This document shows, piece by piece, positions 2,079-32,000 of a stretch of DNA of 32,000 nucleotides (the stretch's first letter is position 1; every line of letters starts with the position of its first letter). The notes under the pieces are model-generated. The model did not search any database, was not told the DNA's origin, and was given only the letters and a program-made list of their open reading frames with translations. Both the position numbers and the translations under genes were made by a program. The stretch is from Nitrosopumilus sp. (lineage in GTDB: Archaea > Thermoproteota > Nitrososphaeria > Nitrososphaerales > Nitrosopumilaceae), in the NCBI GenBank assembly GCA_965197525.1, contig OZ240211.1, positions 506,251 through 538,250 of the forward strand, given 5' to 3'.

Positions 2079-3743
2079 TCAAGACGATGTATCGGTTTTT
2101 TGTGTCACTAGTTTTGTTGCCAATGCAATCATTTTATCAAACTCTGTTTTATCTACTGGGGATTTGGCAAATTCAACCAAGCTAGAACGCTTGAAGCATT
2201 CTGCTATCTGCTCAACAGGATTTGTTGCACCATCAAGGTGTGATAAGATATCTTCGTTTGTAATCTCTTTTTTAAGACCCAACTCGTAACTCAGATACAG
2301 TCTAATTGATTGAGCAATCTTACTGTAAGCGTCTTTGTACTGTTGGTTATCAAAATCTATCTTTGCTTGTGTTATGAGGTTACTTGATGCTGTGATATAA
2401 TCAAACTCTTTGTGGTCTTTGTAGGATACCGCATCTGGTGGTGATGATGTTGTTGTTGTTGTTTTATTTGTATAAAATCGCCTATACAGCATATAACCTA
2501 CAACACCACACAGTATCACAGCAAAGACAACAAACAGACTCAGATAGTCAAACGGTCTCTCTAATTCTATACCTACAAGGTTGTCACCCTCATCAAATAT
2601 TGCAGTAATTGTAGCGTCGTCTTGATTTTTGTTATTATACTGTAGAGACAGAGTGGTTGTACCATCACCATCATTCGGATAGCTAAATTCTACTCCCTCT
2701 CTTACAAAACCGTCCAGAGTCAGACTTTCCTCATACTCTTGAAAACGCTTGTCAGATTCAAGTCTTTCTAGTAATAGGTCATTTTGTAGTTGAGAGGTCT
2801 GTTTTATATCAGTCAGAGTTCCATTGACCATGCTGCCCTGAAATTTAGTCCATTGTTGTTGCTGTTGATCTTGATAATTGACCTCAAAAGTGCCAGTATG
2901 TTCTGATGTCGGGTTTAAAGTGGCGTTTGTAACACCGTTCCCTTGGGCCAAAATACTGTTATGTATCTCTTGAAAATCTTCGTTTGATACTAGCGCTCCT
3001 TCGAACTGTTCGCGTAAGTGATTTTCTTCTTGCACATGTTGTTGTAACTCTTGTTTTAACGCACTGGTATCCTGAGGCAGTTGACTGTTTTGAAGTCGTT
3101 GCTGAGTATCAGAAGGATTGTTTGCTTCTTCTTGATTGATTTGGTTCTGCTGCATCTGTTGTTGAGCGGATTGTTGGGATGATTGACTGCCGGCTTGATT
3201 GTTATTAGACTGAGATGATGAGCTCTGCGTCGGGTTTTGTGTGTTGTTTTGCTCAGATTCGTCTGAAACAAAATTAACGACGATTGAATCCAAGGATACG
3301 TGTATGTCATCAGTGGTATATCCTAAATCCAACACAAAAGATGACGGAGTATCGCTAGTACCAAAATCCAGAGATATCGTTTGTGTTCCATTGACAAGTG
3401 TCAATGAAGATGACTGTGTACGAGTAGTTGAAAATTGCCCAATTGTTTGAGTAACGGTAGATTGTAAGAGCCCATTTACAGAATATCCGTAACTGTTTTC
3501 AATATCTAATGAGATTATTGCGTTTTGGTCCACTAGAAAATAATATTCAGATTGTGGAACAATCATCACTATGTTGTCTTCATTGTCTTCTGCTGCATCT
3601 GTTTGATTATCGTCATGACTGGTAGCATAAGCATCCTCATTACCAACAACAACAACAACAAGAACATCAACAACAGTAACAACCCCAACAGACATAGACA
3701 CGCATAGAATAAACAGCAAACCCAAAGATGTCAATCCATTCAT
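2079..3743 (-). CDS. BatD-like membrane protein, last gene of the MoxR operon, with a Q/S/N-rich low-complexity core
   Basis: 554 aa with an N-terminal hydrophobic signal/TM (LGLLFILCVSMSVGVVTVV) and a second TM near aa 400 (LSLFVVFAVILCGVVGYMLY). The C-terminal helical tail (YKDAYSKIAQSIRLYLSYELG...ITNEDILSHL...CFKRSSLVEFAKSP) resembles BatD C-termini from memory. Its start overlaps the upstream VWA stop in an ATGA 4-nt overlap. Confidence 0.5.
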   Translation of the reverse strand: MNGLTSLGLLFILCVSMSVGVVTVVDVLVVVVVGNEDAYATSHDDNQTDAAEDNEDNIVMIVPQSEYYFLVDQNAIISLDIENSYGYSVNGLLQSTVTQTIGQFSTTRTQSSSLTLVNGTQTISLDFGTSDTPSSFVLDLGYTTDDIHVSLDSIVVNFVSDESEQNNTQNPTQSSSSQSNNNQAGSQSSQQSAQQQMQQNQINQEEANNPSDTQQRLQNSQLPQDTSALKQELQQHVQEENHLREQFEGALVSNEDFQEIHNSILAQGNGVTNATLNPTSEHTGTFEVNYQDQQQQQWTKFQGSMVNGTLTDIKQTSQLQNDLLLERLESDKRFQEYEESLTLDGFVREGVEFSYPNDGDGTTTLSLQYNNKNQDDATITAIFDEGDNLVGIELERPFDYLSLFVVFAVILCGVVGYMLYRRFYTNKTTTTTSSPPDAVSYKDHKEFDYITASSNLITQAKIDFDNQQYKDAYSKIAQSIRLYLSYELGLKKEITNEDILSHLDGATNPVEQIAECFKRSSLVEFAKSPVDKTEFDKMIALATKLVTQKTDTSS

Positions 3744-6649: not shown

Positions 6650-6908
6650 GGTTCTGTAACATCTTCGAGACCCTTAGTGATGTTATCGCTGGCCTAAATA
6701 TACCATTCAAACTATCCTCTAGGTTTAGGGATAGTCGAGATGACATAGATGAAGCGAAGTCTGGCATTTTTGAGCCAGCGATGTTGGAATCTTGCAGATC
6801 AGTAATCTAGATAGTCGATATGTCAAAGTCGAGTGATAGAGAGAAAACAATTTGTTAATAATACAACAAAATTTCTTTGTTGATAGGTGTCTATAACCAG
6901 ACAGAACC
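6650..6908 (+). mobile_element. Miniature (MITE-like) TnpB-element derivative with no protein coding, retaining the left terminus and the right-end RNA block
   Basis: The left terminus is GGTTCTGTAACATCTTCGAGA (6650-6670) and the right terminus is ...CTATAACCAGACAGAACC (ends 6908). The interior 6716-6908 aligns to the 3' end and right end of the tnpB copies at 23255-23410 and 30529-30731. Confidence 0.6.
6716..6908 (+). ncRNA. Putative omega-RNA (right-end RNA) scaffold, orphan copy
   Basis: It starts at the conserved CCTCTAGGTTTAGGGATAGT block and ends at CAGAACC. It contains the hairpins CTGGC-N8-GCCAG and TTTGTTAATAATACAACAAA. There is no intact ORF on the + strand. Confidence 0.4.
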
Positions 6909-9805: not shown

Positions 9806-10233
9806 ACGATCAAGATAACAGTTGTATCTTATGAAGTTTTGAATTTAGTAGGCAAACTATACGTAGAGTAATTAACTGATACATTGAGGTACTCGATAAT
9901 GAACAGGTTTAAAATATGACACCATATCAACACGGATACTCAGAGAGATCATCTTCGTTGTCCTGTTGCTCGTCTAAAATTCGAAGATGGTATAGTATCG
10001 ATTTGTTGCCAGATGCCATAGCAAATTATGATAGAGAGGGTATAAAAACATGTTGTATGTAGCCATACCCTCCCCCACTTACATTATTAGATATAGATAC
10101 CCCCTCCCCCTCCCCTCCAAATACCCGCCCATTTATCTGTGCATCTATCCATATTCCAGTACATCATCGGGTTCTGTTGGGTTATCGAGATCTAAAACAT
10201 AGAAATAAATACTTTTAATCATTACCATAATCA

Positions 10234-10488
10234 TTGAACAGCACGAACACGCAATATCCAGGATGCGGAAAGAAACTCCAAGAGGATATTATGCAACAAC
10301 ATCATAAATTATCGTGTACTAATTGTGGATTGTTCATTGATATGAACGCATCTCACAAGCTGTCCCCTAGGTTTAGGGATAGTAGAGATGACATACATGA
10401 AGCGCAGTCTGGCACTTTTGAGTCAGCAATGTCGGAACCCAGCACACCGTCGGTAATCCGAATAGTCGATATGTCAAAGTCAGGTTAT
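10234..10488 (+). pseudogene. tnpB: TnpB C-terminal remnant (zinc ribbon and RuvC-III decayed)
   Basis: NSTNTQYPGCGKKLQED...SCTNCGLFIDMNASHKLSPRFRDSR aligns to PRNTSTQCPQCGKRLQED...CNNCGLFMDRDIIAAMNISRKLPPRFRGSR of the intact copy. The first Cys is changed to Tyr and the RDIIAA segment is deleted. Confidence 0.75.
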
Positions 10489-10547
10489 ATGGAGAGGAAC
10501 TTTGTTAATACACAACAAATTTCAGGTCTCGATAACCCAACAGAACC
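10364..10547 (+). ncRNA. Putative omega-RNA scaffold, orphan copy
   Basis: There is high nucleotide identity to 23255-23410, starting at CCCCTAGGTTTAGGGATAGTAGAG. It has the hairpins CTGGC-N8-GTCAG and TTTGTTAATACACAACAAA and ends at CAGAACC. Confidence 0.45.
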
Positions 10548-17486: not shown

Positions 17487-19004
17487 CTATATCAGAAACA
17501 AAAATACCGAGGCAGGTATAATTACGTAATCAGTTTTAGATTCCAAATCGAGTTTTGACAAAACAATCCCGGTTTTTTTCACATCATTACGAAAGCTTGT
17601 TAATCCAGATAATTCCTTGGCGTTAATTTTTTGTCTAAACTTTACTTCGATTGGAATTTCAATATCTCCAACTGAAAGCACGAAATCTACTTCCTTGTTG
17701 TTTTTACTCTTCCAGTAAAAGACATGGTTATGGTATTGAAAAATATGCTTTTTTGTACTCAGAGCAAAAGCTAATCTGATTAGGTGGTCGGCTACTATGC
17801 CTTCCACCATCTTTCCCTTATTTGCCTCGTCTTGTACGTACTGTAAGCTAAGATCAAAACTGTTCATTTGATCTGCCCATCCATTAAAAATATGGAGTAA
17901 AAATGGATCTCGGAAATAAAACTTCCGATCATTTTGGATTCTAGGCATCTTGTTTTTGGTACCGTATAGATACACGATTGATAAGACAAATAGATCATCT
18001 AATGTGTATGCATAGTCTGCCACAGTGTTTGGACTACCTATTGCAGATTCACGGGAGAGATTGGTCCAAGAGGTATGGCTAGTCAAACCATTAATTATTG
18101 TTCTTCCAAATTGCCCAAGTAATGTTTCATTTTTAGATTGGCGACTCCATTCGCCGGTAATGCCATTAAGATATTCATAGTAGATATTTTCGTCTAATAT
18201 GCCGGTCGTGATCTTTTTATTAATTATGTAAGGAGTTCCTCCAGTGAGCATATATTCATTTAACAAATCATTTAATTCATTTTGGTACGCATTAATTTTG
18301 TCAATATTTGAATGTATACTGAGATTAGTAAGATCCAGAAGAATGTTTTTCTTGTTTTGAGTACAATGTAATTTTAGATCTGAATGGAGTGATTTTAGTT
18401 CACTATTTTGCATGCAGACAAACTCAGAAAATTTCATAGGTAGCAAAATCTTATCATAGGTATCTGTTATTGTTCCCCTTCTGTTGGGTAGTCTTTCAGA
18501 TGCATTCTTCAATCCAATTGCTTGTGAACCCGTAGCTACTAGTGTAACATTGGGGATTTTATGCTGATCCACTAACCATTTGATACTTTTCTGCCAATCA
18601 ATTACTGAAGTTGCTTCATCTAAAAAGATATACCGTCTATCGCTTTCTCGCAATTTTGGTGTTAATTTAAAATAAATTTCTATAACATCTACAATATCTT
18701 GTTTTGTATCATCAATGTCCAAAGAGTAATAGCATATCTGCCACGGCGATATTCCTTTGTCTAAAAAATCTTTGATCTGTAACATCAGTAATGTGGTTTT
18801 GCCAATTTGTCTAGGTCCACGTAGCGTATAGACTACGGTGTTAGTTGTACTGAAATCCCACTTGATCTTATCTTTCAGTTCTGGAACATATTTCATCATA
18901 GATTTATGCCACTCGTAGATTTTTTGGTTATCGTTAATCTTGCTTGCATTCTTCCACCAAGGATTCATATCCCTTATTCGGTATTCGCTGACCATACAGG
19001 ACAT
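17487..19004 (-). CDS. AAA+ ATPase of the COG1373 type (AAA domain plus DUF4143-like C-terminus)
   Basis: It has Walker A GPRQIGKTT, Walker B YIFLDEAT and NPWW near the N-terminus. I trimmed the start from the ORF-track GTG (19040, inside the tandem repeat) to the ATG at 19004. The ATG at 18995 is equally possible. Confidence 0.8.
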   Translation of the reverse strand: MSCMVSEYRIRDMNPWWKNASKINDNQKIYEWHKSMMKYVPELKDKIKWDFSTTNTVVYTLRGPRQIGKTTLLMLQIKDFLDKGISPWQICYYSLDIDDTKQDIVDVIEIYFKLTPKLRESDRRYIFLDEATSVIDWQKSIKWLVDQHKIPNVTLVATGSQAIGLKNASERLPNRRGTITDTYDKILLPMKFSEFVCMQNSELKSLHSDLKLHCTQNKKNILLDLTNLSIHSNIDKINAYQNELNDLLNEYMLTGGTPYIINKKITTGILDENIYYEYLNGITGEWSRQSKNETLLGQFGRTIINGLTSHTSWTNLSRESAIGSPNTVADYAYTLDDLFVLSIVYLYGTKNKMPRIQNDRKFYFRDPFLLHIFNGWADQMNSFDLSLQYVQDEANKGKMVEGIVADHLIRLAFALSTKKHIFQYHNHVFYWKSKNNKEVDFVLSVGDIEIPIEVKFRQKINAKELSGLTSFRNDVKKTGIVLSKLDLESKTDYVIIPASVFLFLI

Positions 19005-19180
19005 ACTGAACGGTTCTTTATATATTACAGTCGGATCCACTGAACGGTTCTTTATATATTACAGTCGGATCCACTGAACGGTTCTTTATATATTACAGTC
19101 GGATCCACTGAACGGTTCTTTATATATTACAGTCGGATCCACTGAACGGTTCTTTATATATTACAGTCGGATCCACTGAA
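19005..19180. repeat. Perfect 34-bp tandem repeat, 5 copies plus a 6-nt partial
   Basis: The unit ACTGAACGGTTCTTTATATATTACAGTCGGATCC begins at 19005, 19039, 19073, 19107 and 19141, with a partial at 19175. Each unit contains TTTATATA, which matches the archaeal TATA box. Confidence 0.95.
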
Positions 19181-22057: not shown

Positions 22058-22194
22058 ACGTATTCTTCAGAGAACCCCGATAATATCTGCTACGCTAGCA
22101 AGTAATACGGTTTTATTTGAAAAGGTTTTGTGAAGTTATCGGGAGTTATATGTCATCCCTAAAATGTATAAACCTCTGAACCGTAAGATATTCG

Positions 22195-23388
22195 TTGAGA
22201 GCGATAAAGTCAATATCACAGAAATATGCGCAAAACTCTGATCTAATGGATATGATGGCTATATTCACAAAGATGGTCAATCATTGCATCAAGATAGGGT
22301 TGAAAGAAGACACTCACAATATGAAGAGGTTGTCCATGTTATGTTATCATGAATTACGTAACTATGGCATTTTATCAACATACAAGATATGTGCAATATC
22401 AAGAGCTGCAGGCATATTATCAAACAGAAAACAATCAATCAAACGAGGTGTCAGAATAAGAGACCCAATAGTCAAAAATCCCTTTATGACAAACTGTTAC
22501 GGCATAAAACACAACGGTGCACTACTAACAATCCCATACAAGAAACATAACCCAATCAGCATTTTACTCAACGATCACACCCAAAAAATCCTATCTGATC
22601 CCGCCTTGACGGTGCGCTCGTTTTCATTGACTGCTCTCAACATCAGTCTTTGTGTTTCAAAAACAGTACAAGAGATAGAGTGCACCAAGAAGGTGGGAAT
22701 AGACAGAAACCTAAGAAATGTGACGTGTGGGGACGAGGAAGAGGTGACAGTCTACAAGACAAACAAACTGTTATCCATAAAGGAGAACACAATACACGCC
22801 AGGGCAGGCTTCCACAGAAATGATCGCAGGAAGAAAAATCAGTTCTACAAGGAAAAACAGAGAAGACTGACTAACAGAGCAAAGCAGTACATCCACAGAA
22901 TCTCAAAGGATATAGTAGACAACGCAGTCAAAAACAAGACTGCAATCGTCATGGAAAACCTGAAAGGAATAAGAAAATTGTACCGAAAAGGAAACACTCA
23001 AGGTAACAAGTACAGACGTAGATTGAACGGGTGGCAATTCTACGAGTTACAACGCCAAATAGAATACAAAGCCCAATGGGTCGGACTACCTCCAGTCGAG
23101 ACAGTAGACCCAAGAAACACGAGCACGCAGTGTCCACAATGCGGAAAGAGACTCCAAGAGGACATGCAACAACATCGTAAATTGTCGTGTAATAATTGCG
23201 GTTTGTTTATGGACAGGGACATCATCGCTGCCATGAACATATCACGCAAACTGCCCCCTAGGTTTAGGGGTAGTAGAGGTGACATAGATGAAGCACAGTC
23301 CGGCACTTTTGAGCAGGCGATGACGGAACCCAGCACACCATTGGTAATCCGAATAGTCGATATGTCAAAGTCGAGTTATAGGGGTTAA
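22195..23388 (+). CDS. tnpB: TnpB (IS605 OrfB-family) RNA-guided endonuclease, apparently intact
   Basis: 397 aa with RuvC-I VGIDRN (Asp ~170), RuvC-II VMENLKG (Glu ~254), zinc ribbon CPQCG...CNNCG and RuvC-III MDRDIIAAMNI. It has a TTG start; the paralog uses ATG at the equivalent codon. Confidence 0.92.
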   Translation: MRAIKSISQKYAQNSDLMDMMAIFTKMVNHCIKIGLKEDTHNMKRLSMLCYHELRNYGILSTYKICAISRAAGILSNRKQSIKRGVRIRDPIVKNPFMTNCYGIKHNGALLTIPYKKHNPISILLNDHTQKILSDPALTVRSFSLTALNISLCVSKTVQEIECTKKVGIDRNLRNVTCGDEEEVTVYKTNKLLSIKENTIHARAGFHRNDRRKKNQFYKEKQRRLTNRAKQYIHRISKDIVDNAVKNKTAIVMENLKGIRKLYRKGNTQGNKYRRRLNGWQFYELQRQIEYKAQWVGLPPVETVDPRNTSTQCPQCGKRLQEDMQQHRKLSCNNCGLFMDRDIIAAMNISRKLPPRFRGSRGDIDEAQSGTFEQAMTEPSTPLVIRIVDMSKSSYRG

Positions 23389-23410
23389 CTCCCGATAACT
23401 TCACAGAACC
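23255..23410 (+). ncRNA. Putative omega-RNA (reRNA) scaffold overlapping the tnpB 3' end and the right end
   Basis: This is the nucleotide block most conserved among all four copies, including the non-coding ones. A terminal hairpin GTTATAGGGGTTAACTCCCGATAAC lies just before TTCACAGAACC. The expected guide is the flank 23411-23430. Confidence 0.55.
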
Positions 23411-23438
23411 AAAAGAATAGTAAAAAAGATGAAGATTA

Positions 23439-24554
23439 TTGGGAATTCCTGAAAAGATCAAAGCCATACAAGATGAAATGGCAAAGACGCAGATCAACAA
23501 GGCAACAGAGCACCACATAGGATTACTCAAAGCAAAGATTGCCAAGCTCAAAAGAGAACAAGAAGCAGATGCTGTCAAAAAATCAGGCATGAAGCAAGAT
23601 GGATTTGATGTAAGGCGTAGCGGAGATGCGACAGTGGTATTCATAGGACTGCCAAGTGTCGGAAAATCTACACTGTTAAACAAGATGACTGGTGCTAACT
23701 CAACCATAGGGGCTTTCCAATTTACAACACTGACTGTTGTTCCGGGGATGATGGAGTACAGGGGCGCAAAGATCCAAGTATTGGATCTGCCAGGGATCAT
23801 AAAAGGTGCATCAACAGGCAAAGGATTAGGAAAGAGAATATTATCAGTTGCAAGATCAGCTGACCTAGTACTGTTGATGTTAGATGTATTTCAACCATAT
23901 CACGAGGACGTGTTAATAAATGAATTAGGCAATATTGGAATAAGATTAAACCGCCTACCACCGAACATCACAATTGAAAAAGCATCAATGGGAGGAATTG
24001 CAGTTGCGCAACAAGTAAAATTAACAAAGATCACAGAGAAACATCTCAAAGACATATTACATCTGTACGGATTGGTTAGCGCACGCGTGGTAATAAGAGA
24101 AGATATAACATCTGAACAATTGGCAGATCATATTGCAGGAAATATTAGTTATTCAAAAGCTATCACGATACTAAACAAGATTGATCTAGTGGATAAAGTA
24201 TTTCTCAATAATTTAAAAACAAAGATAAAATCAGACGTAGTAGAGGTGTCTGCAAATGCAGATATCAACATTGAACTACTCAAAGAAAAGATATATCAGA
24301 AATTAAAATTTATTAGAATATATATGAGACCCAAGGGCGGAGAGACTGATTTTAAAGAACCGTTAATTGCAAGAGAAGGTGACACAGTTGAAGAAATTTG
24401 TAACAAACTTCATCGCAGGTTAAGAAGAGAGTTCAGATACGGTTTAGTTTGGGGCAAGAGTGTAAAGTTTGGAGGACAGCGAGTGGGATTAAGTCACATT
24501 TTAGTCGATGAGGATGTGCTCACCATAATAAAAAAGCGTGGAAGTACTGTATAA
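23439..24554 (+). CDS. DRG-family (Obg-like) GTP-binding protein with C-terminal TGS domain
   Basis: 371 aa with G1 GLPSVGKST, G3 DLPGII and G4 NKID. It has the N-terminal MGIPEKIKAIQDEMAKTQ typical of DRG proteins and a TTG start. Confidence 0.92.
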   Translation: MGIPEKIKAIQDEMAKTQINKATEHHIGLLKAKIAKLKREQEADAVKKSGMKQDGFDVRRSGDATVVFIGLPSVGKSTLLNKMTGANSTIGAFQFTTLTVVPGMMEYRGAKIQVLDLPGIIKGASTGKGLGKRILSVARSADLVLLMLDVFQPYHEDVLINELGNIGIRLNRLPPNITIEKASMGGIAVAQQVKLTKITEKHLKDILHLYGLVSARVVIREDITSEQLADHIAGNISYSKAITILNKIDLVDKVFLNNLKTKIKSDVVEVSANADINIELLKEKIYQKLKFIRIYMRPKGGETDFKEPLIAREGDTVEEICNKLHRRLRREFRYGLVWGKSVKFGGQRVGLSHILVDEDVLTIIKKRGSTV

Positions 24555-24759: not shown

Positions 24760-25320
24760 ATGGCTATAAGAAAAACTTCTACAGCTAAACGTAGAACAGC
24801 TAAGAAAACTACTGCAAGAAAGACATCTACAAAGAAAGCAGCTCCTAGACGAAGTGCAGCAAAGAAAGCAGCTCCTAGACGAAGTGCAGCAAAGAAAGCA
24901 GCTCCTAGACGAAGTGCAGCAAAGAAAGCAGCTCCTAGACGAAGTGCAGCAAAGAAAGCAGCTCCTAGACGAAGTGCAGCAAAGAAAGCAGCTCCTAGAC
25001 GAAGTGCAGCAAAGAAAGCAGCTCCTAGACGAAGTGCAGCAAAGAAAGCAGCTCCTAGACGAAGTGCAGCAAAGAAAGCAGCTCCTAGACGAAGTGCAGC
25101 AAAGAAAGCAGCTCCTAGACGAAGTGCAGCAAAGAAAGCAGCTCCTAGACGAAGTGCAGCAAAGAAAGCAGCTCCTAGACGAAGTGCAGCAAAGAAAGCA
25201 GCTCCTAGACGAAGTGCAGCAAAGAAAGCAGCTCCTAGACGAAGTGCAGCAAAGAAAGCAGCTCCTAGACGAAGTGCAGCAAAGAAAGCAGCTCCTAGAC
25301 GAAGTGCAAAGAGACGATAA
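24760..25320 (+). CDS. Highly basic Ala/Lys/Arg/Pro repeat protein (histone H1-tail-like), 16 x AAPRRSAAKK
   Basis: It starts with ATG, and the non-repeat N-terminus MAIRKTSTAKRRTAKKTTARKTSTKK has the same composition as the repeats. The stop comes directly after a degenerate last repeat. Other frames of the repeat are open only because the unit has no stop codon. Confidence 0.6.
   Translation: MAIRKTSTAKRRTAKKTTARKTSTKKAAPRRSAAKKAAPRRSAAKKAAPRRSAAKKAAPRRSAAKKAAPRRSAAKKAAPRRSAAKKAAPRRSAAKKAAPRRSAAKKAAPRRSAAKKAAPRRSAAKKAAPRRSAAKKAAPRRSAAKKAAPRRSAAKKAAPRRSAAKKAAPRRSAAKKAAPRRSAKRR
24838..25308. repeat. Perfect 30-bp tandem repeat, 15 identical units plus a 21-nt partial
   Basis: The unit GCAGCTCCTAGACGAAGTGCAGCAAAGAAA recurs with no mismatch from 24838 to 25287, and the next unit diverges after 21 nt. 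Confidence 0.98.
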
Positions 25321-25549: not shown

Positions 25550-27229
25550 TCAATAAAGATAACTCATTAATTTAATCTCTTCTTCAGTGCTAATGATGTT
25601 TTTAGCTGTTAGAACTTCTAACAGATCCTTAAAAAGTGCTTTTTGCTCACTAGACATTCCACCGGTAGGACCCTTATCACCTGGTAATCCCGGAGGACCT
25701 CGTGGGCCTGGAGGACCTAATGGGCCTTGCTCACCTGGAGGACCTTGCTCACCTAGAGGGCCTAATGGGCCTTTTGAACCTCGCTCTCCTTGAGGACCCT
25801 GAATTCCTTGTGGGCCTTGTGGGCCTTTCTCACCTGCAGGACCGGTAGGACCTCGCTCTCCTTGGGAACCTTGTGGGCCTTGTGGGCCTTTGGCGCCTAC
25901 AGGACCTAGTGGGCCGGTAGAGCCTCGCTCTCCAATCTGTCCGACACGTCCCTTCTCACCTCGCTCACCCTGTATTCCTGGAACGCCTGTCATTCCTTTC
26001 TCACCTGGAGGACCTTGTGGGCCTTGTGGACCAGTCTCACCTTGTGGACCATCAACGCCCTTGTTTCCTTTCTCACCGGGGGGACCAGTTGGACCTGCTA
26101 GTCCTTTTGGACCTTTGTCGCCTTGTGGACCCGTAACACCTGTTAATCCTTTTGAGCCTGTGGCGCCCTGCGGGCCTTGTAGACCCTTCTCACCTGGAGA
26201 ACCTTTGTCACCAGTTGGGCCTTTCTCACCCGTAGCACCTTGTGGGCCAAGTAAACCTTGTGGACCTTTGTCGCCTTTGATTCCAACAGGACCTGTTAAT
26301 CCTTTTGAACCCACAGGACCGGGGGAACCTTGCGGACCTTTGTCGCCCGGAGAACCGAGTTGGCCTGTAGGGCCTTTTGAACCCTTATCCCCCATATGAC
26401 CATGAGGACCTTTGTCACCTATAGGGCCTTTGTCACCAGTTGGACCCTTGGTGCCCACAGGACCTGCAGGACCTTGCAGTCCTTTGTCACCCTGAATTCC
26501 AGGAAAGCCAGTTGGGCCCTTTTCACCAGCAGGTCCAGGTGGACCGGTAAGTCCTTTGTCACCAGGCATGCCCTGTGGGCCTTTGTCACCCTTATCGCCA
26601 ATAACCCCGCGTAAACCAAGAGGGCCTTTGTCGCCAAGAGGACCTTTGTCACCTGGAGGACCACGCTCACCTTGCACACCTGAAGGTCCAGATGGACCTT
26701 TGTCACCTTTAGAACCCATACGTCCAGAGGATCCAGTAGAAACGGCAATATCAGATGAGCCTTCAGGCGTGGATGGTTTTTGTCGTCCAGATGAGGGTTT
26801 GGTAATAGTAGAAGAGGAGGAGGAGGAAGAGGAAGATGCAGGAGGAACAATAGACATGCCAGATTTAACATCATGTGTAGCAGAAGCATCTGCATCCTTG
26901 CTGGATTTATCAGTTTTTAGAGCCTTCTTTTTCAAAGAGACCTCAAATACAGTATGTGCAGAAGAGAACGAATCATATGCGACAATCCAAATTTTATCTA
27001 GTGCGTCAATTGACGGAGGCAGTGGATTTAGTGCAGACCCCAGCGTTTCAAAAAACACGCCATCGCGTACGCGTAGATGAAAGTGGTCTTTCCAGAGATA
27101 TTTGAACTGTTTTGACATTATGGAATCATCAGTAGGCTTGGATGTTGTGATAGCAATTTCAGTCTCATAGACTCCAGGCTGGGTTATTGGCGCAGGTCCG
27201 CTTACCTCTAACTTTGATGCAGATGACAC
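25550..27229 (-). CDS. Collagen-like triple-helix repeat protein
   Basis: 559 aa. Residues 169-522 (nt 25664-26725) are about 118 uninterrupted Gly-X-Y triplets (GDKGPQG, GERGPPG and similar). The 168-aa N-terminal non-collagen domain ends in a Ser9 linker, and there is a 37-aa C-terminal helical tail. It has a GTG start and no in-frame upstream ATG. Confidence 0.85.
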
Positions 27230-30387: not shown

Positions 30388-30528
30388 TGTAAAGAAAATC
30401 CATAGAGCGGTTATAAATTTTTAAGAATAGGATATTATTGACTAAAAAATTTGTAAATATACAGAATATTCCTATTTTAACGCATAATACTCAAACATCC
30501 ATATCATATTTTGAAGATATTGTATAGG

Positions 30529-30731
30529 GGTTCTGTCTAATCATAGTGAGATAAAATCTAAACTCCGAAAAAAAGTTTTGTTGTAATATTAACAAAGTGT
30601 CTTTTTCCCATCAGTTGACTTTGACATATCGACTATTTGGATTACCGGTGTACAGGGTTCCAACATCGCTAACTCAAAAACATTAGACTTCGCTTCACTT
30701 ATGCCAACTCTACTATCCCTAAACCTAGGGG
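30529..30731 (-). ncRNA. Putative omega-RNA scaffold of the frameshifted element
   Basis: The reverse complement starts CCCCTAGGTTTAGGGATAGTAGAG and ends GATTAGACAGAACC. It has the compensated hairpin CTAAT-N8-GTTAG and the TTTGTTAATATTACAACAAA hairpin. Confidence 0.45.
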
Positions 30732-31792
30732 ACAGTTTGTGAGGTATATTTATAGCAGCAATAACGTCTCTGTCCATAAACAACCCACAATTATTGCACG
30801 ACTTTTTACGATGGTGTTGCAAGTCCTCTTGGAGTTTCTTTCCGCATCTTGGACATTGCGAGCTCGTGTTTTTTGGGTCTACAAATTTTACTGGAAGCCC
30901 TACCCATTGGGCTTTGTATTGTATTTGTCTTTGAAATTCAAAGAATTGCCATCCGTTTAATCTACGTCTGTACTTGTTACCTTGACCATTGCCTTTCTTG
31001 TATAATTTTCTTATTCCTTTTAGATCTTCTAGAATAATCATGGTTTTGTTTTTGACTGCTCGTTCTACAATATCTTTTGAGATTCTATGTATGTATTGTT
31101 TGGTTCTTTGAGACATTCTTCTCTGCTTTATCTTCCAGAACTGATCTTTCTTTCTACGGTCATTTCTATGAAATCCAGCTCTAGCGTGTATTGTATTTTC
31201 TTTAATTGATAGTAATTTATTTGTCTTGTATACTATAACTTTTTTCTCATTCCCACAAGTGACATTTCTAAGATTTCTGTCTAATTCCTACCGGTACATT
31301 AGTACATTCTATTTCTTCAACTTTTTTTGAAACACAAAAACTGATACTTTTTTCATTCATAATAAATGATCTTATATTTAAATCAGGATTAGATAGTATT
31401 TTTTGAGTGTGATCATTTAATAATATGTTTATGGGGTTTCTATTTTTGTATGGTATTGTCATTAAACTACCATTATGTTTGATACCATAACAATTTGTAA
31501 TAAATAACTTTTTTACAACTAGGTCTCTTACTGTAACACCACGCTTTATTGACTGTTTTCTGTTAGATAGTATGCCAACAGCACGTGATATTGCATTTAT
31601 TTTATATGAACCTAAAACATCATAGTCTCTAAATTCATGATAACAAAGTGGAGACAACTGTTTCAAACTATGTACGTCTTCTCTTAACCCTATTCTAATG
31701 GAACGATTTACCATTTTTATGAATATCTCCATCAACTCTTTTAGATCAGAATTTGGTGTATGTTTCTGTGTTATTGATTTTAATGCCTTCAT
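30589..31792 (-). pseudogene. tnpB: tnpB disrupted by a single-nucleotide insertion just before the RuvC-I Asp codon
   Basis: The N-terminal ORF (31268-31792) and the C-terminal frame (open from 31281 to 30589) both align to the intact copy. GGAATTAGACAG here corresponds to GGAATAGACAG in the intact copy, so there is one extra base at plus-strand 31283/31284. Downstream E, Zn-ribbon and DRD motifs are intact. Confidence 0.85.
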
Positions 31793-32000
31793 ACTACTAG
31801 AACATGTTTTATTTTTTTAATAAAGGTACTTTTTTTGAAATTATTTTTATTCTTTGCCACTTGATAATCCAATAAAACCATTATTTGTTATTGTAAATCT
31901 AGATAAAAATTTATCTCCCTATAAATAGACAGAACACTGTATAGGTAAGTATTAATTGTTTATGCTACAAGAATACAATATGCAAAAGGCGACCATAGCA

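Follow-up and report, generated by a model that had tools for sequence, protein, structure and literature searches.

Elements of the IS200/IS605 family (IS1341 group) have subterminal hairpins at both ends and are inserted directly 3' of a target of 4-5 nt, which thus adjoins the left end. In IS605, the recognition motif of TnpB (TAM) has co-evolved to match the target preference of TnpA. According to reviews, IS200/IS605 elements have neither terminal inverted repeats nor target-site duplications. TnpB is also found in DDE-associated branches, where it lies no more than about 250 bp from an end with inverted terminal repeats and where the ends of solo TnpBs are almost the same as those of elements that carry a transposase (Altae-Tran et al., 2023, PMC10691335). 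The DDE families named in connection with TnpB in the texts consulted are IS630, ISL2, and IS1031; IS6 and Thaumarchaeota are mentioned in none of them. Elements of the IS6 family are thought to move replicatively without excision, and a review of this family mentions two MITEs, a single member with passenger genes, and no TnpB.

The window analyzed here, a stretch of 32,000 nucleotides from Nitrosopumilus sp. (contig OZ240211.1), contained a DDE-associated solo TnpB in an element that is at most a non-autonomous IS6 derivative. A preliminary description of this DNA had reported four copies, all of which were located, and had stated that two of them no longer encoded protein; the actual number was three (c2, c3, and c4). 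The copies were as follows:

22124-23410 (+): copy 1 (c1), with an intact tnpB
30529-31937 (-): c2, a full-length pseudogene copy whose terminal repeats match at 22 of 26 positions
10170-10547 (+): c3, a 378-bp deletion derivative whose terminal repeats match at 24 of 26 positions
6650-6908 (+): c4, a 259-bp deletion derivative in which about 24 nt of the left end are followed directly by the final ~220 nt of the omega-RNA region

Copy 1 was a 1,287-bp element with tnpB as its sole gene. Its terminal inverted repeats of 25 bp, which were passed over in the preliminary description together with the element type, were complementary at 24 of 25 positions and ran from GGTTCTGT to ACAGAACC. A further 22 nt lay between the tnpB stop codon (TAA, 23386-23388) and position 23410, and 28 nt (23411-23438) separated c1 from the start of a DRG GTPase gene at 23439. 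A tRNA search returned none. The features of c1 and its flanks are given below:

22112-22115 (+): TTTA, candidate TAM, immediately preceding the left 8-mer of c1
22116-22123 (+): left 8-mer TTTGAAAA, at the site of the left target-site duplication in relatives
22124-22148 (+): left terminal inverted repeat GGTTTTGTGAAGTTATCGGGAGTTA, IS6-type, the first 8-12 nt being the published IS6 inverted repeat ggttctgttgcaaag
22160-22174 (+): TATA-like A/T-rich box TAAAATGTATAAACC, some 25-30 nt ahead of the tnpB start, as read from the sequence
22195-23388 (+): tnpB, 397 aa, TTG start, with RuvC-I D170, RuvC-II E254, zinc ribbon C313/C316/C332/C335, and RuvC-III D342
23117-23410 (+): predicted omega-RNA scaffold, ~295 nt, from RNAalifold, pair counts, and synonymous constraint
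23386-23410 (+): right terminal inverted repeat TAACTCCCGATAACTTCACAGAACC, doubling as the 3' strand of the terminal helix H7
23411-23430 (+): predicted guide-encoding flank AAAAGAATAGTAAAAAAGAT, placed by the register of TTTR relative to the duplication in relatives

The right 8-mer of c1 was AAAAGAAT as opposed to TTTGAAAA on the left; c1 had no target duplication, probably after a rearrangement. The TATA-like box is the presumed promoter of a leaderless tnpB transcript, and an AAAT-rich segment occupied the matching position in relatives. One base pair of a clade-specific hairpin was broken in c1 (GAGCAGGC versus GAGCCGGC in relatives). The OMEGA module of c1 looks intact and may be active.

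The second full-length copy, c2, was flanked by an 8-bp duplication (CCTATACA, at 30521-30528 and 31938-31945), with CTTA 5' of the left copy of this duplication. A left end for c2 at 31878 was dropped in favor of 31937, where the end pairs with its right counterpart and the duplication is recovered. The ORF of c2 was broken by a frameshift that removes GIDRN, and the remaining ORFs spanned 31792-31268 and 31116-30589. In c3, the left end and about 65 nt were joined to sequence that begins about 7 nt ahead of helix H1, and the entire omega-RNA region was kept. The identity between c1 and c2 climbed toward the 3' end, from 72% (22196-22688) and 78% (22695-23090) to 80% (23091-23339) and 88% (23343-23382), and that between c1 and c3 was 86% over 23233-23383. 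Copies c2-c4 held 45-70 extra nucleotides within the region of 23384-23402, including a TTTGTTAATAnnACAACAAA hairpin. The inner repeat sequence varied among the four copies, which had only the last 8 nt, ACAGAACC, in common.

The preliminary description had taken the product of c1 for a TnpB with its motifs in the order RuvC-I, RuvC-II, zinc ribbon, and RuvC-III, and this assignment was borne out by the ORF, by profile searches, and by comparison of the predicted structure with ISDra2 TnpB. The motifs were ordered KVGIDRNLRN, AIVMENLKGIRK, CPQCG...CNNCG, and FMDRDIIAAMNIS in the 397-aa ORF. The residues D170 (GIDRN), E254 (MENL), and D342 (DRD), as well as the four zinc-ribbon cysteines, were invariant in 37 relatives. 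The homologous start position in relatives was TTG or ATG. The profiles NF040570 (guided_TnpB, 125.4, cutoff 100) and PF07282 (74.5 bits, cutoff 26.3) scored above their cutoffs. PF01385 (OrfB_IS605) scored 20, below its cutoff of 30.5, and the match to IS200_TnpB was also weak. The AF2 model had a pLDDT of 76.9 and matched AsCas12f with a TM of 0.65; Foldseek with this model returned 8J1J (E 1.5e-15, TM 0.65) and 8EXA (TM 0.51/0.58), and the comparison with ISDra2 TnpB (8H1J) gave a TM of 0.60/0.65. Cas12f proteins (AsCas12f and Un1Cas12f1) were the best structural matches (TM 0.62-0.66), and the MEDL and NAD motifs in Cas12f chains of solved structure aligned with E254 and D342. Sequence and predicted structure identify the 397-aa protein as a TnpB whose catalytic triad is intact and whose fold is that of TnpB/Cas12f. 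The relatives of this protein are named 'IS200/IS605 accessory protein' in the source databases. No TnpB relatives were found in viral contigs.

The predicted scaffold comprised the last ~270 nt of tnpB and the 22 nt that lead to the right terminus. RNAalifold and pair counting were run on 34 sequences of relatives, and the following helices were obtained:

23117-22/23185-90 (+): helix H1
23127-35/23160-67 (+): helix H2
23143-45/23153-55 (+): helix H3
23196-200/23245-49 (+): helix H4
23250-56/23268-74 (+): helix H5
23280-86/23361-67 (+): helix H6
23370-79/23395-23404 (+): helix H7, followed by the 3' tail AGAACC

The two strands of H7, as read from the sequence, were GTCGAGTTAT and ATAACTTCAC. 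Across the 41 pairs, 95.8% were paired, compared with 82% when shuffled and 33-47% when slid, and compensatory changes were found at 22 pairs. A single-sequence fold reproduced the helices. Moreover, the synonymous-codon identity was 0.67-0.82 over residues 301-397 versus ~0.45 upstream. The scaffold was assigned to the sense strand because many of its G-U pairs would become C-A mismatches on the opposite strand. These computations support a structured RNA read from the sense strand of the 3' block, which fits an omega-RNA scaffold. A conserved 3' block had previously been placed at 23255-23410; the block is real, yet it begins near 23117 and is ~295 nt long rather than 156, and the copies differ over 23384-23402. 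No Rfam family matched the whole window at the gathering threshold or the segment 23000-23460 at E<=10. Pairing between left-end and right-end RNA across the whole mRNA was considered and set aside, since transcription presumably starts from a promoter within the left end, past the repeat. The guide had been proposed to start at 23411, which agreed with the exact register of the flank motif in relatives, and to fall within the 28-bp spacer before the DRG GTPase gene, and this spacer was confirmed. A second match to the flank 23411-23430 was sought in the window, and none was found.

Terminal inverted repeats of 20-35 bp occurred family-wide. All members carried GGTTCTGT, and several (L017, L025, and L048) carried GGTTCTGTTGCA. 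By comparison with published repeats, these repeats were of the IS6 family type (GGTTCTGTTGCAAAG...). A perfect 8-bp target duplication was present in 17 of 35 related insertions and also in c2, and both the published IS6 inverted repeat and the published duplication length agree with the family. The analogy with characterized IS200/IS605 systems drawn earlier thus fails for the transposon, in view of the IS6-type inverted repeats and of the 8-bp duplications in relatives. Eight copies in one Nitrosopumilus chromosome were 96-99% identical, indicating recent mobility, and relatives occupied unrelated genomic contexts. Two of the related loci (L002 and L005) had swapped flanks, a pattern compatible with intramolecular replicative transposition or inter-copy recombination and diagnostic of neither.

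The element was regarded as non-autonomous because no transposase was present in the window, where neither a PF13610 match, that is, an IS6-family transposase, nor a Y1 or serine TnpA was found. No IS6-family transposase was detected in ~0.5 Mb of Thaumarchaeal loci. A tblastn search with an approximate IS26 transposase sequence had no match in the window or in L001-L080; the same query flagged L106 and L085 in a metagenome scan, and curated profiles confirmed both (NF033587 at 128 bits for L106, with a cutoff of 125; PF13610 at 8e-20). Elements with GGTTCTGTCAAGTTATCGG-type repeats, 8-bp duplications, and an IS6 transposase were found at L106, L085, L201, L211, L216, L218, L219/221, L225, and L227. 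These transposase-bearing elements with matching repeats were archaeal, and none was Thaumarchaeal. When the L106 and L085 transposases were searched against the whole database, no Thaumarchaeal cognate was among the matches listed, which were of Methanoregula, DPANN, and Bathyarchaeia type, none of them on a Nitrosopumilus chromosome. An autonomous partner element would be expected to be bounded by the end sequence GGTTCTGTGAAGTTATCGGGAG. Several candidates were discarded. Most isolated metagenome matches to the 14-base repeat pattern were due to chance, the 2,496-bp 'other' element of L014 was passenger-only, and the nested elements in L010 and L044 were IS630-type insertions.

The flanks of the related insertions carried a strongly one-sided motif. 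In the family logo, T occupied position -10 in 32 of 35 insertions and R occupied position -9 in 33. The two occurred together in 32 of the 35 (local background 0.17, p=1e-21) and in all 18 insertions with an intact duplication, where the register was exact to a single base. TTTA (8) and TTTG (6) were the commonest 4-mers 5' of the left duplication. This T-R signal, mostly TTTR, was limited to the left side, and the right flank had no mirror signal. All 10 recent copies in one chromosome already bore the TTTR-type motif. TnpB-less IS6-type elements with the same repeat type had TR at 3 of 23 ends, which is the background level, and were drawn from other archaeal lineages, so that a transposase-encoded asymmetric target preference in Thaumarchaeota may apply. 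The sequence ATAAGG was common to L106 and L201, whose transposases are related, at -14 to -9; it was rejected as a shared flank motif after three further elements did not show it. L225 had TTTG at the position of the flank motif. TTTR is also the PAM of Cas12f. Since T-R lies directly 5' of the left duplication, an empty site would place a Cas12f-like TAM beside guide-matching sequence. Hence TTTR is probably the TnpB recognition motif, as far as genome comparison can tell. A hunt for the empty site by exact look-up of the DRG protein returned no record.

Taken as a whole, the explanation considered fairly probable is that c1 is a non-autonomous element of ammonia-oxidizing archaea (Nitrosopumilales), in which an OMEGA module with a TTTR TAM is enclosed by IS6-type ends, mobilized in trans, and maintained by homing. 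An IS6-family transposase supplied in trans would move the element as double-stranded DNA. The omega RNA would read through ACAGAACC into the right flank, and therefore the guide would consist of the right duplication copy and the next ~8-12 nt. With TTTR as the TAM, an unoccupied site made of TTTR, the duplication unit, and the right flank would be a perfect target. The occupied site would be protected because its left junction matches the guide for 8 nt only and its right junction is preceded by GAACC. TnpB would then cut empty sites, and the element would be copied or retained. Such homing would explain why nearly all insertions seen adjoin a TAM. Given that IS6 elements appear to move without excision, the restorative homing shown for IS605 would have no obvious role. 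For c1 itself, the absence of a target duplication leaves its guide without a known TAM-flanked cognate site. The more specific proposal, in which TnpB and its omega RNA are coupled to an IS6-type DDE transposon, the 8-bp duplication is the TAM-proximal seed of the guide, and homing or TAM-dependent choice decides the insertions, is put forward only tentatively.

Other explanations assign the element or its conserved parts differently. An ordinary IS200/IS605 (IS1341-group) solo TnpB, moved as single-stranded DNA by a Y1 TnpA in trans, would accord with the TnpB profile matches, including the weak ones to IS200_TnpB and OrfB_IS605, and with the accessory-protein tag in the databases. It is exceedingly improbable in view of the 25-bp terminal inverted repeats of c1, the 8-bp duplications of its relatives, the placement of TTTR at -12 to -9 (8 bp from the left end and not abutting it), and the absence of TnpA from the window. 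It is likewise highly improbable that the 3' block reflects a need at the DNA level, in the form of subterminal transposase-binding sites or plain coding constraint, and not RNA. The block does overlap the conserved zinc ribbon and RuvC-III parts of the protein and ends in the terminal repeat that the transposase must bind; however, double compensatory changes preserve 22 pairs, the G-U pairs can form only on the sense strand, and synonymous sites are constrained even at residues 351-397, where amino-acid identity is lowest. Moreover, symmetric transposase binding would be expected to leave an equivalent conserved block of ~270 nt at the left end, which has none. Decay or domestication of TnpB, leaving a neutral relic or, for example, a protein that regulates the adjacent DRG GTPase gene instead of acting as a nuclease, might be suspected in c1, which lacks a target duplication and lies 28 bp from an essential gene, with three of the four window copies dead. 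Exapted TnpB regulators (TldR-type) typically lose the nuclease site, whereas the catalytic triad and zinc ribbon of c1 are intact; c1 is also 92-94% identical to a recently multiplied family, and its relatives lie in unrelated contexts. This explanation is considered very unlikely.

The origin of the flank motif was weighed separately. TTTR might be fixed at insertion, either by an asymmetric transposase preference that TAM co-evolution has matched or by TAM-bound TnpB that guides the transposase. The presence of the motif in every recent copy and in every insertion with an intact duplication speaks for this, as targeting gives such completeness more easily than a filter does, and so do the ATAAGG shared by L106 and L201 and the TTTG of L225. 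Against it stand the background-level T-R at the ends of the TnpB-less elements from other lineages and the lack of a mirrored motif on the right. As a rule, a DDE transposase that acts on symmetric ends has target preferences that are also symmetric, and we know of no precedent for recruitment of a transposase by the TAM only. Fixation at insertion was judged unlikely, and homing onto TTTR-flanked empty sites was retained as the preferred reading.

If this reading is true, the homing logic of TnpB would be extended from scarless HUH/serine transposons to a DDE transposon that makes duplications, and a coupling of the kind proposed would connect an RNA-guided nuclease to DDE transposition in a natural and minimal way, outside the Tn7-like CASTs and IS200/IS605/IS607. 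The near-absolute, one-sided TTTR beside a non-specific duplication raises the question of whether an RNA-guided nuclease filters or directs DDE insertions. The hosts are abundant and ecologically important marine and soil archaea. Genome comparison alone sufficed to predict a TAM (TTTR) for this compact, 397-aa nuclease of a mesophile, and with the scaffold defined (23117-23410), a TAM screen or an editing test can be designed directly. Furthermore, genes for restriction-modification, toxin-antitoxin systems, and TnpB are all found as cargo between archaeal IS6-type ends, a diversity that is scarcely noted in the reference description of the family.

Compared with known systems, c1 resembles the ISDra2-type TnpB/OMEGA of IS200/IS605 in its RuvC nuclease of ~400 aa with a zinc ribbon, in a predicted scaffold that overlaps the 3' end of the gene and reaches the right end of the element, in a guide that would come from the right flank, and in a candidate TAM on the left of the insertion, so that the empty site would be the target. 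Unlike that system, the carrier has terminal inverted repeats, 8-bp target duplications, and no Y1/serine TnpA; the duplication parts the TAM from the left end and would form the first 8 nt of the guide target, and the scaffold is longer (~295 nt). The c1 family shares both of the features described above for DDE-associated TnpB branches (PMC10691335) and differs from them in that no element with both tnpB and a transposase was found here. As in Fanzor/HERMES, the guide RNA would extend through the terminal inverted repeat at the 3' end and reach the target-site duplication, and the nuclease is the passenger of a DDE-type transposon. In Fanzor, a sequence-specific duplication (TA, TTAA) is read within the TAM, whereas the duplications here show no preferred sequence and the motif is found upstream of them; moreover, the c1 family is hosted by archaea and has its catalytic glutamate at the canonical position. 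The inverted repeat starting with GGTTCTGT, the 8-bp duplications, and the abundance in archaea are those of IS6 (IS26), from which the element differs in having no transposase gene, a cargo of tnpB and an RNA gene, and an asymmetric flank motif at its insertion sites. Finally, the catalytic motifs align with those of Cas12f and the inferred TTTR equals the Cas12f PAM; unlike Cas12f, the system has no CRISPR array or tracrRNA and would use a single transposon-derived guide, and its gene is multicopy and mobile.

The best reading of the TnpB element of the window was a non-autonomous IS6-type element with an OMEGA module as cargo, because of its IS6-like repeats, the 8-bp duplications in relatives and the existence of transposase-encoding archaeal elements with similar ends. 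The window held four copies.

Copies of the TnpB element in the window
c1: 22124-23410, + strand, 1,287 bp, intact
c2: 30529-31937, - strand, full length, frameshifted, GIDRN destroyed, ORF split into 31792-31268 and 31116-30589
c3: 10170-10547, + strand, 378 bp
c4: 6650-6908, + strand, 259 bp

The tnpB ORF of c1 (22195-23388, + strand, 397 aa) began with TTG, a start supported by the TTG or ATG that relatives have at the same place, and its stop codon (23386-23388) was followed by 22 nt to the element end. As the preliminary description had stated, the motifs GIDRN, MENLKG, CPQCG...CNNCG and MDRDIIAAMNI occurred in this order, and 28 nt lay between the right end and the DRG GTPase start (23439). 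The profile searches proposed there gave 125.4 for NCBIfam guided_TnpB (cutoff 100) and 74.5 bits for Pfam Cas12f1-like_TNB (cutoff 26.3), whereas the OrfB_IS605 profile scored under its cutoff. The full RuvC triad was confirmed: D170, E254 and D342 were invariant, together with C313/C316/C332/C335, in an alignment of 37 relatives with identity down to 50%, and in Cas12f chains of solved structure E254 and D342 aligned with the motifs MEDL and NAD. The AlphaFold model of c1 TnpB (pLDDT 76.9) matched AsCas12f (TM 0.65, E 1.5e-15) and also ISDra2 TnpB (8H1J; TM 0.60/0.65), the comparison suggested earlier. The database search returned 1,665 relatives (top identity 92%), from Nitrosopumilus, Nitrosarchaeum, Nitrosotenuis, Nitrosotalea and other Thaumarchaeota where the source was named, and many paralogues were present on single chromosomes of 2.2-2.5 Mb. 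Eight copies in one Nitrosopumilus chromosome were 96-99% mutually identical; hence, the family moved recently. The identity of c1 to these copies was 92-94%. In the recently multiplied copies L001-L008 (~2985-3003; protein P0002), CTG stood in place of the TTG start, and the ORF opened at a GTG within the left terminal repeat (product of 420 aa), so that translation would start inside the end of the transposon.

The elements at 80 related loci started with GGTTCTGT and ended with ACAGAACC, and their inverted repeats of 20-35 bp had an inner part that was lineage-specific yet complementary within each element. The terminal inverted repeat of c1, absent from the preliminary description, was 25 bp long (22124-22148/23386-23410) and matched at 24/25 positions. 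A perfect 8-bp flank duplication was found in 17 of the 35 distinct insertions with good ends, one more matched at 7/8, and c2 was flanked on both sides by CCTATACA. Neither inverted repeats nor duplications are present in IS200/IS605 or IS607 elements. The published IS6 inverted repeat is ggttctgttgcaaagtttt..., and this family, which is abundant in archaea, makes 8-bp duplications (IS6 review). A metagenome scan by repeat pattern with look-ups yielded archaeal elements of 2.6-5.7 kb whose repeats (GGTTCTGTCAAGTTATCGGCAGG...) were nearly the same. These elements had perfect 8-bp duplications and passenger genes, and they encoded a transposase scoring above the cutoff of the curated IS6 model (NF033587, 128 bits, cutoff 125; PF13610, 8e-20). 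The cognate transposase was found neither in the window or the related loci L001-L080 nor among the matches listed for two archaeal IS6 transposases, those being Methanoregula- and DPANN-type. L002 and L005, near-identical copies on one chromosome (OZ245003.1, ~1.325 and ~1.452 Mb), lay 126 kb apart in opposite orientation with exchanged flanks (TAGAAACT/TTATGTTA), which points to inter-copy recombination or intramolecular replicative transposition; the implied inversion was ~126 kb.

The passenger-carrying IS6-type transposons of 2.6-5.7 kb lay in methanogen and DPANN contigs. Their cargo included a type IIG restriction-modification enzyme, a methylase with a nuclease, RHH/MazE antitoxins, PycTM and peptidases.

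Passenger-carrying IS6-type transposons (locus: coordinates)
L106: 124-5847
L085: 44-4107
L201: 1005-4356
L211: 4744-8508
L216: 5556-8113
L218: 5441-8179
L221: 1964-5245
L225: 5897-9476
L227: 38-3892

In a Thaumarchaeota MAG, a 2.5-kb element (L014:286-2781) lay within IS6-type repeats (GGTTCCGTTGCGAATTCGTGA...), had neither transposase nor tnpB, encoded nucleotidyltransferase/HEPN-like and HicB-like ORFs, and directly adjoined a TnpB element; its G+C was far above the surroundings. IS630-type (DDE_3) insertion sequences were nested in two TnpB elements (L010:1973-2992 and L044:1737-2846), and the 2,399-bp L010 composite retained its outer 8-bp duplication CAGAAATC.

The 3' region of the element was under constraint beyond its protein. 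Among 49 non-redundant relatives, synonymous-codon identity was 0.41-0.49 at residues 1-300 and 0.67-0.71 at residues 301-340, and it peaked at 0.82 at residues 351-370, where amino-acid identity was lowest. Seven helices were predicted by RNAalifold on 34 sequences.

Predicted omega-RNA helices (all + strand)
H1: 23117-22/23185-90
H2: 23127-35/23160-67
H3: 23143-45/23153-55
H4: 23196-200/23245-49
H5: 23250-56/23268-74
H6: 23280-86/23361-67
H7: 23370-74/23400-04

Paired cells made up 95.8% of the alignment at these helices, versus 82.1% in shuffled alignments (0/500 reached the observed value) and 33-47% with slid partners. The covariation score was 0.425 (shuffled, 0.17; slid, 0.04-0.09), and compensatory changes occurred at 22 of the 41 predicted pairs. 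G-U pairs were frequent, and the structure was thus specific to the tnpB-sense strand. The helices were reproduced by the single-sequence fold of c1, in which H7 reached GTCGAGTTAT/ATAACTTCAC; the right terminal repeat therefore served as the 3' strand of this terminal helix, beyond which lay AGAACC and then the flank. Rfam held no family matching the window or the omega-RNA region.

Identity between c1 and c2 was 72% at the 5' end and increased to 88% over 23343-23382, and that between c1 and c3 was 86% across 23233-23383. The conserved 3' block reported for all four copies was thus confirmed, with refinements: the copies diverged again at 23384-23402, the constrained region began far upstream of the reported start at 23255, and three copies (c2, c3 and c4) rather than two were non-coding. 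In c3, the deletion joined the left end with ~65 nt to sequence starting ~7 nt before H1, so that the omega-RNA region was kept in full. Synonymous constraint, covarying helices and this retention, taken together, fit a predicted omega-RNA scaffold; the RNA scaffold proposed earlier gained covariation-supported helices reaching the right end, and its length was revised to ~295 nt with a start upstream of 23255. In c3, the left end with its presumed promoter stood just upstream of the first helix. This copy may act as an omega-RNA-only element that can draw on TnpB from another copy.

The flanks carried a motif in a single-base register. Counted from the left end, position -10 was T in 32/35 insertions and -9 was A or G in 33/35; both held in 32/35 (local background 0.17, binomial p=1e-21) and in 18/18 of those whose duplication was intact. 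The top 4-mers at -12..-9 were TTTA (8 of 35) and TTTG (6 of 35). T-R at -10/-9 was present in all four window copies (c1 TTTA, c2 CTTA, c3 AGTA, c4 ATTG) and in L139, a miniature element bearing the omega RNA, but at only 3/23 ends of IS6-type elements that share the repeat type and lack TnpB. The right flanks of the 35 insertions had no mirror-image signal. The motif lay exactly 5' of the left duplication copy; hence, in the empty site, it would directly precede the duplication unit and right flank, the sequence to which the guide of an omega RNA reading through ACAGAACC would correspond. We read TTTR as the candidate TAM, since its register abuts this guide-matching sequence and it equals the Cas12f PAM; Cas12f is structurally the nearest relative of c1 TnpB. 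The same register independently supported the proposed guide start at 23411. ATAAGG was seen at -14..-9, immediately 5' of the duplication, in L106 and L201, which have related IS6 transposases and different duplications; it was not in three further elements and may reflect chance or a clade-specific target motif.

The element would be mobilised in trans by an IS6-family transposase, and its omega RNA would read through the right end into the flank. TnpB would cut unoccupied sites flanked by TTTR, and this cutting would help the element to be copied or kept. An occupied site would escape, since its left junction pairs with only 8 nt of the guide and GAACC precedes its right junction. The near-universal motif among insertions was preferably read as a homing filter. 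A serious rival is that it arises from a co-evolved asymmetric preference of the cognate transposase, or from TnpB-assisted target choice. Restorative homing has been shown for IS605; the movement of IS6 elements is considered replicative, with no excision step (IS6 review), so this form would not apply. For the homing filter to operate with an IS6-type carrier, allelic homing would have to replace it.

In c1, TTTA (22112-22115) was followed by TTTGAAAA (22116-22123) on the left, and the right flank was AAAAGAAT; the two thus formed no duplication. Either the duplication was lost via rearrangement, as in L002/L005, or TTTG disappeared from the right junction. On this second option, which is speculative, TTTG would still stand before the present guide in the empty ancestral site (TTTA-TTTG-AAAAGAATAG...). 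The left repeat had one C-to-T change, and one pair of a clade-specific hairpin was broken (GAGCAGGC vs GAGCCGGC). The predicted guide had no second match within the window. Judged from its sequence, the OMEGA module of c1 looks functional.

Other repeats were also observed in the window. A perfect 34-bp tandem repeat (19005-19180, 5.2 copies, ACTGAACGGTTCTTTATATATTACAGTCGGATCC) spanned the 5' end and upstream region of an AAA_14/DUF4143 ATPase gene (17487-19040, - strand) and adjoined the arginyl-tRNA synthetase gene. A 186-aa basic protein (24760-25320) matched Pfam HC2 (histone H1-like nucleoprotein); its (AAKKAAPRRS)n was encoded by 16 copies of a perfect 30-bp repeat (24830-25308), across which all three forward and reverse frames were open. 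A 559-aa protein (25550-27229, - strand) consisted over ~400 residues of G-X-Y repeats of collagen type (Pfam Collagen, 1e-59), and its gene sits in an archaeal core-genome region.

The module would work like ISDra2-type TnpB and its omega RNA, whereas the element differed from IS200/IS605 in the defining features tested. TnpBs with DDE transposases, inverted terminal repeats and solo derivatives with the same ends are described by Altae-Tran et al. 2023 (PMC10691335); the main text of that paper and a 2026 review name the DDE families IS630, ISL2 and IS1031 and do not name IS6. The IS6 review lists a single member with passenger genes, two MITEs and no TnpB. A coupling of TAM and DDE insertion, if mechanistic, would raise the interest of this family. 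In eukaryotic Fanzor/HERMES elements, the guide RNA likewise crosses the 3' repeat into the duplication; there, however, the duplication is sequence-specific and part of the TAM, whereas in the present family it is non-specific and would lie within the guide target.
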